Shown in pieces: positions 51,746 through 54,700 of a stretch of 64,000 nucleotides of DNA. The stretch spans positions 434,001 to 498,000 of the forward strand of contig NW_026934971.1 in assembly GCF_032062105.1 (NCBI RefSeq), given 5' to 3'. The first letter of the stretch is position 1, and each line of letters begins with the position of its first letter. Source of the DNA: Saccostrea cucullata (lineage: Eukaryota). Both the position numbers and the translations under genes were made by a program. Below the pieces are notes generated by a model. It was not told the origin of the DNA. It made no database searches and worked only from the letters and a program-made list of their open reading frames with translations.

Positions 51746-54700
51746 ATGGTAAAAGAATATGGTATACGAGCGTACAAAGCAATTCAGGACTATTTCTCCC
51801 CAGAACCGAAAAACCTGGAATTCCAAAAGGGTGATGATGTTACCCATGTTAAGGTCTTAAACAAAGAATGGGCTTTAGGACGAAATAAGAGAACTAAGAA
51901 AACAGGCTGCTTCCCAATATCGTTCATTGAATATGATAAATCTCTTTGGAATCGGCTTTCTTTTAACCAGAAACCAAAAATTCCAAAGACCTCACATCGA
52001 ACAACTGTTATAGAAACGGCTGATTACAGTGAAAGCGACGATGAAGAGATGACCATGACCAGTGAAACGCAGAAAACATTACCAGCTAAAGACGAACTAT
52101 TTCCGAGTCATGTAACCAATTTAACAAAACTAATAAAAGCTAAATCATACCACGGAAAGGCTAAAGAAAAGAAGTACGAGTATACAATGAATGCAGAGAT
52201 ATTGCAGAAAAATACCCGTACTCTGATAGACGAGCTCAAGTTAAGGCTTCAGTCAAAAAATCCTACTCGATCAATGAGTTTCCGTACTCAGTCTCTCATA
52301 CGAAGGATAGTTGTGGCGGTTTGTGGTGTTTTGTTAGGAGCTATTCTTTGTGGCGCTCTTTTCTCCATCTGTGTTTTCAGCTTCGGTTATTCATATAAAG
52401 TTTCAGGCATTGTCACAGGTTCAGTGTTTCTTTTGGTTCTTATTGGAGTTGGCGGAAGTCGATTTCTAAGTTGCTGTCTGCTTCTTGTTGTTCCCTCTTT
52501 ATTCACGTCACAAGGTAGATCGTTAGCCCTAGCAGCCATATTTATCTTACTAATGGCGGGTCCAGGAACAAATGTCGTCAAGAATACAGTGGAAATATCG
52601 AGGTGCTTGGCATGTGTGGCCGACTTGATCCAGAATCAGCTATTGCAACTTGCAAAACAAATCAAAGCTCCTTTCGATCGCATCGCTGCAGCGCTGAGAG
52701 ATGTGTTTCAAAGAGTTCTTAGTGGTCTGCAGGAAGTTATAGATACCATAGATGCTGTGGCCACCAAAGTACAATCCTTCTTGAAAAAAGTGAAAGAAAT
52801 CGCCTCAAAGATTACTGGTGTTTTCACTGTAAGTGATTTACGATTGCATATTATGATTTCAGGAAAAAATATCTATTAAAAATGAAATACACATATGCAT
52901 TTCTACAATGTTATAGTAAATATACATAATTATACCTCAAATAAGTATAAATAAATAAGATCTTTTTTTTAAAAAAAAAAACACATGAACTTACTTTTGT
53001 TTTCAATGCACATTCGAGTAAATGATTAACATCATATATATGTTTATCTGTTTTGAAAAATAAAAGTCATTTACTACAGGATTGTGCAGCAACTATGGAA
53101 AAAGCAAAAGGTGAATGTGAATCAGCGATAGGAAAAGCAGAAACAGCATGTGACGACGCACTGAAGGCAGCGGAAGAATGGCTGAAAAAAGCCGCAGAGA
53201 AAATAATCAGCCCGTTCAAAAAGGTTGCGAGTCTCTGGGGGAAAAGACGTAAGCGTGCTCTCGGTATATCACACTCAAGCCAAACAAACAGAACAGTCTC
53301 ACAGAAGTATAAAATACCACATTCAAGCCAGACAAACAGAACAGCCATATTGAAGGACAGAGTACCACACTCAAGCCAGACAAACAGAACAGTCATATTG
53401 AAGGACAGAGTACCACACTCAAACCAGACAAACAGAACAGTCATCGGGATGGAAAACACATCACTCAAAAGTCGATCAGACAGAATGCTCATTCAGAGGG
53501 AGAGAATATTACAGTCAAGTCAAAAAAACAAAACGACCATCGGGAGGCAAGTGGTTGACATGATTCCAAACACTGATCTTACTGACAGGAAAGAGGGATA
53601 TAGTCAATCATTCGACATTTTACCTTTCGAGCCAAGAAACAACAGTATATCGTCACAAATGATAGCGAGTTCTTGGTCTGAGGTTCCCATTTCCTCAGAA
53701 AAACAAAGGACAAATAGAAGGTATGAACATGTCTTTTATCGATATACCACAGAAATTTGATAAAATATTGAATTTATTCTAATAATAGCTAAATTTACAT
53801 AAATTTTTACAGCTTTACTAATTATAATTATATATGTACATATCACAAGACTTCGTCTAACTTTTTTCAGTAAGATTGACTTTAATTAACTATTTTGCAC
53901 ACAGGAAAAATGGCCATAGTTTATCTTAACATTTTTGTTACTTGTATTGACATGAAGTTTTTTTTAATTCGTCCGAAATGAGATACTAACCGCTGTATAG
54001 TACATGTACATCGATAAATAAATTGGTGAATTTTCTTTTACAGTGTGTGGTATTTTTTGGGCGATGAGGTTCCTTTTGTATTTGAAGAAAGAGTTGCCAG
54101 GTAATCAGCTTTATAAATCATTTCAAATTAAATTATTACTATTTGAAATTAGAGCAAAATAAAGAGTGTTATAGTCCACATTTTTGCATTAATTTCTTCT
54201 GAGAAATCAGAAATTTTTTTCTTTACATTAAAAAAAAATGAAGTCCTTTTGAATTGCATGACCGAAATTTGTCATCGCATATTTGAAAATCAATCATGTC
54301 AAAATCTTTCTTTTTATTTTCAGGAGAAAACGCTCGATCTGCAGTGTTCTTGGAGCTGTTGATGTTGTTTGCAATGTCGTCGATATTCCAGGATCCATAT
54401 GCAAGGCCATCAGTTTTGCTTCAAATGGGTTAGAAAACGCAGCACAGTCTGCAATGAACGAATTTCAAAACCTGAAAAGCGAATTCGTTTTTGGTTTCAA
54501 TGCTTCTTTTGATATAGACAACAATATAAATTCTTCAAAGTCTGCATCACAAATTGTCGACCAGGTCCTTGCCGATATTTCTAGTAAAGTGTCAAATATA
54601 TTTAAAATATCGAGTTTCATCAGCCAGGCTCTAGGTGTCACTGTCTTTTTCCTTTTCCTCAAAGCTGTTATTTACATGACTCGATACATGAAGCAGGATT

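Follow-up and report, generated by a model that had tools for sequence, protein, structure and literature searches.

The identity of the bilaterian sperm-egg fusogen is an open question, for which DCST1 and DCST2 are the most conserved candidates; fertilization is described as depending on them in mice, fish, fly and worm (PMC8989947, PMC8055269, PMC13192892). The published trees, as described in the text of two of these papers, comprise DCST1, DCST2, DC-STAMP and OC-STAMP clades only (PMC8989947, PMC8055269). The account of the DCST1/2 tip given in a 2026 preprint (SPARK, PMC13192892) proposes that the tip is hydrophobic, under diversifying selection and shielded by TMEM81, and that the exposed tip inserts into the egg membrane.

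The gene described here lies on the + strand of a 64,000-nucleotide stretch of Saccostrea cucullata genomic DNA (the window) and encodes, in 4 coding exons, a DCST-type protein of 1020 amino acids. Like DCST1/Sneaky/SPE-49 and DCST2/SPE-42, the protein combines Dcst2 and DC_STAMP regions with a non-canonical RING, six predicted helices and a Cys-bearing stalk, and it is 23–25% identical to DCST2 and sneaky. Unlike DCST1/2, it belongs to a separate, coexisting clade (termed X below) and carries an N-terminal SH3 domain (0/94 DCST1/2 proteins) and a furin-flanked tip spacer (0/46). DC-STAMP and OC-STAMP are described as sharing with it the DC_STAMP domain and a C-terminal RING (PMC8989947). The chordate DC-STAMP clusters of the Atlas, compared by domain content, are without PF26039, PF26037 and SH3.

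Gene model, SH3 domain and membrane core

The reading frame extends from the ATG at 51746 for 361 codons without a stop to a GT donor after 52828. The exons and the protein features are given in Table 1. RNA contigs of run X3 (tissue not on record), 90–99% alike to the window, have all three introns spliced out and cover the spacer of the ectodomain tip, and the SH3 domain is covered by one contig of run X1. No single RNA contig spanning SH3 to TM1 was found; the two share one exon. The depth on the gene was about zero in three adult oligo-dT runs, the tissue of which is not on record, and run X4 contributed 6 reads over 4 kb. The sequencing-run search listed no RNA run as containing the gene. 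An alternative donor after 53248 was rejected; as read from the sequence it gives a frameshift, and it is absent among the X3 joints. The gene model of Saccostrea echinata is without the tip spacer. An AG acceptor is located 5 nt ahead of the ATG (51739–51740), and a further exon upstream is possible; none was found.

Directly 5′ of the SH3 exon, positions 50250–51550 hold a multi-copy repeat with many partly fitting RNA reads on both strands, which probably derive from repeat copies elsewhere. Positions 49653–49776 (+ strand) form a short frame resembling an exon; it has both an ATG and a GT donor, is out of phase with the SH3 exon and shows zero RNA depth in its bin.

Table 1 Features of the SH3-DCST gene, in window coordinates.
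Feature	Position	Strand	Evidence
Exon A: SH3, linker, TM1–3, start of ectodomain stalk	51741..52828	+	Acceptor AG 51739-51740; donor joint to 53080 in run X3
SH3 domain, aa 7-63	51764..51934	+	Pfam, AlphaFold model, Foldseek, residue alignment
Disordered cytosolic linker with one PxxP (PKIP, aa 77-80, nt 51974-51985)	51935..52288	+	pLDDT <50 at aa 71-151
Membrane helices 1–3 (predicted), aa 182-278; Dcst2 region (Pfam)	52289..52579	+	Hydropathy; model helices; PF26039 precomputed
Exon B: Cys-bearing stalk helix, first furin-type site, bulk of spacer	53080..53720	+	Both joints in run X3
First furin-type site RRKR, aa 417-420	53245..53256	+	
Disordered Ser/Thr-rich spacer, 173 aa including micro-exon, 9 N-glycosylation sequons	53257..53720	+	Covered by X3 contigs
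48-nt tandem repeat (16 aa), 3.7 copies, inside spacer	53266-53444	+	
Micro-exon, 19 codons, closes spacer	54044..54100	+	NCBI model P0001; GT..AG joints in X3
Second furin-type site RRKR, aa 594-597, split by intron 54101-54323; then segment aa 598-620	54099..54333	+	
Exon C: descending stalk, TM4–6, DC_STAMP domain (54703-55275), stop 55603-55605	54324..55605	+	
Four CxxC pairs (C969-C1007), non-canonical RING	55447..55563	+	PF26037 precomputed; alignment with DCST1/2

The N-terminal domain is identified as SH3 both by profile and by fold. Pfam SH3_1 matched aa 11-57 (E 1.4e-8, 34.7 bits, cut-off 22.9) and SH3_2 matched aa 10-62 (24.6 bits, cut-off 21.8). The AlphaFold model contains the five strands of the barrel at aa 10-63, in a block with pLDDT of 90–95, and its Foldseek superposition on the LASP1 and nebulette SH3 domains resulted in a rmsd of 0.8 Å over 54 columns. 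In both sequence and fold, the SH3 domains of nebulin, LASP1, nebulette and sorbin match best (E 6e-8; rmsd 0.8 Å), at ~31% identity; in contrast to them, the oyster domain is without the first ALYDY tyrosine and the acidic RT loop. The top 50 ranks listed by Foldseek against the PDB were SH3-containing chains only, and a sequence search of the PDB found no solved DCST structure. A search for the SH3 donor in the oyster's own genome returned only two weak matches, and a donor was not identified.

Arg-PxxP ligands engage the first ALYDY tyrosine and acidic RT-loop positions of SH3 domains. The oyster SH3 keeps Y16, W42, P57 and F60; Gln14 replaces the first tyrosine of ALYDY and Asn23 the acidic RT-loop residue. 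Among 16 SH3 seed domains, W42 is kept in 15, P57 in all 16, and an aromatic residue or His occupies position 16 in all 16; position 23 is acidic in 10/16 and position 14 is variable. The ligand pocket of the oyster SH3 thus appears partly degenerate, and because positions 14 and 23 depart, a classic dynamin- or WASP-type ligand is not favoured. The linker that follows may offer an internal ligand, which is only a lead: a PxxP occurs after the SH3 in 10/21 proteins (null mean 2.8). Oyster-like rows account for most of these, joined by Pinctada and Lingula, and only ~3 independent lineages are represented. A general autoinhibitory role of the linker PxxP was set aside since the independent lineages are too few.

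The remainder of the chain has the features of the DCST family, namely a Dcst2 N-terminal region, 5-6 membrane helices, a stalk, the DC_STAMP domain and the RING cysteines. The DC_STAMP match lies in the last exon and extends over the full profile (E about 2e-44 to 4e-44). As six membrane helices and no signal peptide are predicted, the SH3 and RING are both predicted to be cytosolic. The RING is lost in some X members (P0044, P0055, P0031, P0029). A homodimer prediction for P0002 aa 210-704, run without an alignment, gave an uninformative score of 0.04.

An earlier note on this DNA had reported an SH3 motif in the same exon and frame as the first TM segments, with the fusion not a splicing artefact. 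Its reading of the domain is borne out by the profile search, both scores lying above the cut-offs, and by the barrel and its superposition. The first hydrophobic segment starts at about nt 52289, the end of the range 51746..52300 considered there, and the 361-codon exon is open through the helices at aa 182-278. The single exon, the spliced contigs and orthologues with the same architecture rule out a splicing or annotation artefact. The statement that DCST proteins lack SH3 holds for DCST1 and DCST2, none of the 94 tree rows having one by HMM score, and the cytosolic side proposed for the SH3 agrees with the predicted topology. The C-terminal RING-like cluster is indeed present (four CxxC pairs, PF26037) but is not a novelty, a C-terminal RING being described as standard for the DCST/DC-STAMP family (PMC8989947). 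The WASP- or dynamin-type coupling that the note inferred for the SH3 may hold but is weakened by Gln14 and Asn23. A translation start downstream of the SH3, which the note had raised against itself, is not supported. Orthologue proteins begin at the SH3 or slightly ahead of it, and the next in-frame Met of the oyster protein is aa 102. Mean pairwise identity among 14 proteins is 34% in the SH3, 12% in the linker and 38–39% in the DC_STAMP/core. In its conservation the SH3 is close to the core and far from the linker, which supports translation of the domain and selection on it; the orthologue starts point the same way.

Clade X and its taxonomic range

The tree of 124 rows separates into DCST1/sneaky (15 rows), DCST2 (79) and the third group, X (30). 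All 15 SH3-bearing rows fall in X, which also includes molluscs without SH3, together with echinoderms (Antedon, Anneissia, Diadema and Lytechinus). From the 173 proteins matching the core, 36 with less than 70% core coverage were dropped, and 14 near-duplicates were left out of the tree. IQ-TREE runs on chosen subsets of 51 rows and of 34 rows (with bootstraps) gave the same three-way split. The trees are unrooted and contain no DC-STAMP or OC-STAMP rows. In the 34-row tree X (95/96), DCST1 (100/100) and DCST2 (100/99) each make up one side of a branch. Forcing the lophotrochozoan X rows together with snail DCST2 was rejected (p-AU 9e-6), as was forcing them together with annelid DCST1 (p-AU 3e-153). 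The oyster gene was accordingly not assigned as a DCST2 orthologue with vertebrate and snail DCST2, despite its NCBI name 'DCST2-like', nor as a DCST1 orthologue with vertebrate DCST1/sneaky, and the same genome holds separate loci of both kinds.

Five DC_STAMP loci were found in the oyster genome: two belong to X (the SH3-DCST gene and C13172), one is DCST2-like (C179) and two are DCST1-like (C11044 and C985). The DCST2-like locus and one DCST1-like locus comprise at least 10 matching pieces each, compared with the 4 coding exons of the SH3-DCST gene. The multi-exon DCST1-like loci (C11044:185000-192700 and C985:8400-18700) may be alleles or a duplication. No SH3 was found in the ~8.7 kb upstream of the paralogue C13172. 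Judged from these sequences, X represents an additional paralogue that dates back at least to the mollusc-brachiopod split and, should the echinoderm rows belong to it, to the protostome-deuterostome split. The two-paralogue picture in the literature is therefore incomplete for molluscs, brachiopods and echinoderms. X has been duplicated repeatedly within lineages (P0017/P0036, P0020/P0044, P0032/P0059, P0009/P0011/P0143/P0079), which hints at X-X' pairs resembling DCST1/2.

The SH3 is absent from 15/30 X rows, which forces at least 7 changes on the tree; the absences may reflect either loss or truncated models. The echinoderm members have no SH3 and instead have proline-rich N-tails. A P[QI]xP[KR]R-like (PxxPxR-type) motif is present in 8/8 echinoderm proteins possessing an N-tail, and the SH3 motifs of 2/4 tested tails beat shuffles (5 and 31 of 1000 shuffles; 385 and 395 for the others). 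This suggests that the whole of clade X may engage SH3-type signalling, via the domain or via its ligand.

Among the best 150 of 1106 matches, 30 of which were looked up by name, SH3-DCST proteins are carried by nine named genera of bivalves, gastropods and a brachiopod (Saccostrea, Mytilus, Pinctada, Mizuhopecten, Mya, Mercenaria, Haliotis, Patella and the brachiopod Lingula). These carriers rule out an oyster-specific fusion. An Atlas cluster of 80 proteins, most commonly from Mollusca, has SH3_1 in 69%, and a Pfam scan of 45 chosen proteins found an SH3 over the cut-off together with DC_STAMP in one chain in 12. A profile built from 16 SH3 domains also recovered two members that had been kept out of it, P0017 from Lingula (51 bits) and P0021 from Mercenaria (34 bits). 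Word-index protein searches, being crowded, yielded no more than 2, 6 and 8 proteins. The architecture is old and already visible in automatic annotation, in the Atlas cluster and in UniRef names, and the clade X genes are hidden under the automatic names 'DCST2-like' and 'sneaky-like'.

The phylogeny against DCST1/2 and the architecture search that the earlier note had called for thus set X apart from both families and gave a widespread, multi-genus distribution. The latter counts against novelty of the architecture; as to its being already characterised, the literature search found no description of SH3-DCST proteins, a third clade or tip cleavage. Subscription papers lay outside the scope of that search, as did supplementary trees that perhaps include these sequences (Noda 2022 Fig. 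S1A, SPARK preprint). The third-clade status and the furin-flanked tip spacer, which we rate as the more surprising parts, went without mention in the note.

Other DC_STAMP fusions also came up in the searches. P0078 is an LRR-DC_STAMP fusion in a sandfly model and perhaps two merged genes, and one Atlas DC_STAMP cluster has Tetraspanin in 70% of its members. The predicted structure of a 922-aa flatworm cluster aligns along the entire P0002.

Ectodomain tip and candidate function

In the predicted structure a long helix (aa 255-418) leads to a disordered region (419-594), which is followed by short descending helices. In the alignment, the spacer stands in place of the short hydrophobic turn, or tip, of DCST1/2. 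The second RRKR directly precedes a hydrophobic, Cys-bearing segment (aa 598-620), such that by motif and position the protein has a luminal R-x-K/R-R ahead of a hydrophobic segment. A tip R-x-K/R-R occurs in 9/29 X rows, in 0/15 DCST1 and in 0/31 DCST2 rows, against a background of 7 sites per 14,244 ectodomain residues elsewhere. Two tip sites are present in 7/29 X rows (Saccostrea, Mytilus, Pinctada, two Mizuhopecten, Patella and Lottia), with an unalignable spacer of 16–177 aa between them. Read by eye and with provisional exon edges, the paralogue C13172 also appears to have both sites. Since 20/29 X rows, including those of heterodont clams, Lingula and echinoderms, are without a furin-type site, cleavage would not be needed family-wide.

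A removable spacer is plausible as an alternative to the proposed shielding of the tip. RSV F with its p27 peptide is a class I viral fusion protein with two furin sites, and the oyster protein resembles it by analogy: a glycosylated spacer lies between two furin-type sites, a hydrophobic segment comes next, and the halves are predicted to be disulfide-linked. No homology between the two was found. The oyster protein is a multi-pass host protein, and its segment after the furin-type site contains Asp and Cys, in contrast to typical fusion peptides.

The reading we favour, at about even chances, is that X is a third DCST lineage acting as a membrane subunit in gamete fusion, anchored by its SH3 and, in many molluscs, primed by furin. 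From the observed architecture, splicing, clade and motif positions we infer its topology, cleavage, tip insertion, SH3 anchoring and site of action as follows. With the SH3 and RING facing the cytosol, the long helical stalk would stand outside. A furin-type protease of the Golgi would cut both RRKR sites and release the glycosylated spacer, which until then would shield a hydrophobic tip. The halves would be held together by the membrane and the conserved stalk cysteines, and the new N-terminus (aa 598-620), combined with the first half's amphipathic end, would make up this tip, the part proposed in DCST1/2 to enter the partner membrane. Through its SH3 the protein would be linked to a partner that is proline-rich or associated with actin, or else to a PxxP of its own; echinoderm members would instead recruit an SH3 adaptor through the PxxPxR motif. 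The likely site of action would be the sperm acrosomal process.

Most of the named X genera have actin-based acrosomal processes and, to our knowledge, all 15 fertilize externally, a correlation with spawning that rests on the best 150 of 1106 matches. The function of the DCST family and the anatomy of the tip also speak for this reading, and the long branches, repeated duplications and variable spacer length (16–177 aa) would fit fast-evolving gamete proteins. Weighing against the gamete-fusion reading are the furin-type sites, which are not universal, the spacer missing from the S. echinata model, the SH3 missing from half of the X rows, the partly degenerate pocket, the few lineages with a linker PxxP, the two echinoderm tails that do not beat shuffles, and the C. 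gigas gonad-specific list discussed below. In a more far-reaching version, which we consider doubtful, an ancient bilaterian DCST lineage of broadcast spawners would be a host fusogen subunit whose priming resembles that of class I viral fusion proteins, with the furin-excised spacer freeing a membrane-inserting tip and the SH3, or the echinoderm SH3-binding motif, coupling it to acrosomal actin. If such viral-type priming were true, it would be direct evidence for the DCST stalk tip as the working fusion element.

A somewhat unlikely alternative is that X acts in somatic cell fusion, as an invertebrate functional counterpart (perhaps a pro-orthologue) of DC-STAMP/OC-STAMP in hemocyte giant cells or echinoderm skeletogenic syncytia, with the SH3 linking to actin protrusions, much as the earlier note tied it to actin regulators. 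Canonical DCST1 and DCST2 are both in the oyster genome, which would free X for such a role; X genes have few large exons, as do vertebrate DC-STAMP and OC-STAMP; and the closest solved SH3 domains are those of the actin-associated nebulette, LASP1, nebulin and sorbin. The gonad-specific list for C. gigas is also consistent with somatic fusion, having just two DCST rows, both testis, with DCST2 and DCST1 as best matches (PMC4232546 File S1). If this pair is the canonical DCST1/2, the X genes would not be gonad-specific in that species; the PMC10987912 supplements contained no DCST rows. However, X carries PF26039 and PF26037, which are missing from the chordate DC-STAMP clusters, the three adult oligo-dT runs speak against somatic use as far as their unrecorded tissue allows, and the literature search found no DCST in mollusc giant cells or sea-urchin mesenchyme.

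Two further readings give the tip or the SH3 a lesser role. It is quite unlikely that the protein is an endomembrane adaptor or E3 ligase, in which the SH3 would recruit a substrate for ubiquitination by the RING and the spacer would be a neutral, fast-evolving loop. DCST1 is cited as an E3 ligase (PMC8830517) and DC-STAMP is described as partly in the ER (PMC8989947), and the SH3 and RING are predicted on one side; the loss of the RING in some X members and of the SH3 in others has also been counted in its favour. Nonetheless, the paired furin-type sites at fixed positions across bivalves and limpets, despite an unalignable spacer, suggest selection on cleavage, and the long Cys-bearing stalk is retained. 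That the oyster SH3 is a degenerate passenger, a dispensable remnant of an old fusion with no ligand, appears improbable. Gln14, Asn23 and the patchy distribution of the domain (at least 7 changes) are what such a passenger would be expected to show, but its conservation is near that of the core (34% vs 38%), W42, P57 and the aromatic or His at position 16 are kept in nearly all seed domains, and it is retained from Lingula to oysters.

On the gamete-fusion reading, the paired furin-type sites and the removable spacer at the proposed fusion tip make this natural variant a direct test of the tip hypothesis, in animals whose gametes are abundant and easily fertilized in vitro. The SH3, together with the echinoderm SH3-ligand motif, would be the first intrinsic entry point to the cytosolic partners of DCST proteins.

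Other features of the window

Downstream of the gene, a repeat at positions 57076-57542 is covered by reads to a very high depth (~500-600 per strand); its joints go back ~150 nt, a pattern that suits a tandem or dispersed repeat that is transcribed. Exon-like open frames on the − strand (59924-62119), which look to us like an SPFH/band-7 protein, matched 0 Pfam families in both pieces. Upstream, a divergent pair comprises a TM2-domain gene, presumably DNAJC22-like (46003-46443, − strand), and a small Ras-family GTPase of low RNA depth (47400-48900, + strand). Positions 32001-36000 have a strong negative AT skew (−0.23 to −0.37) across 4 kb.
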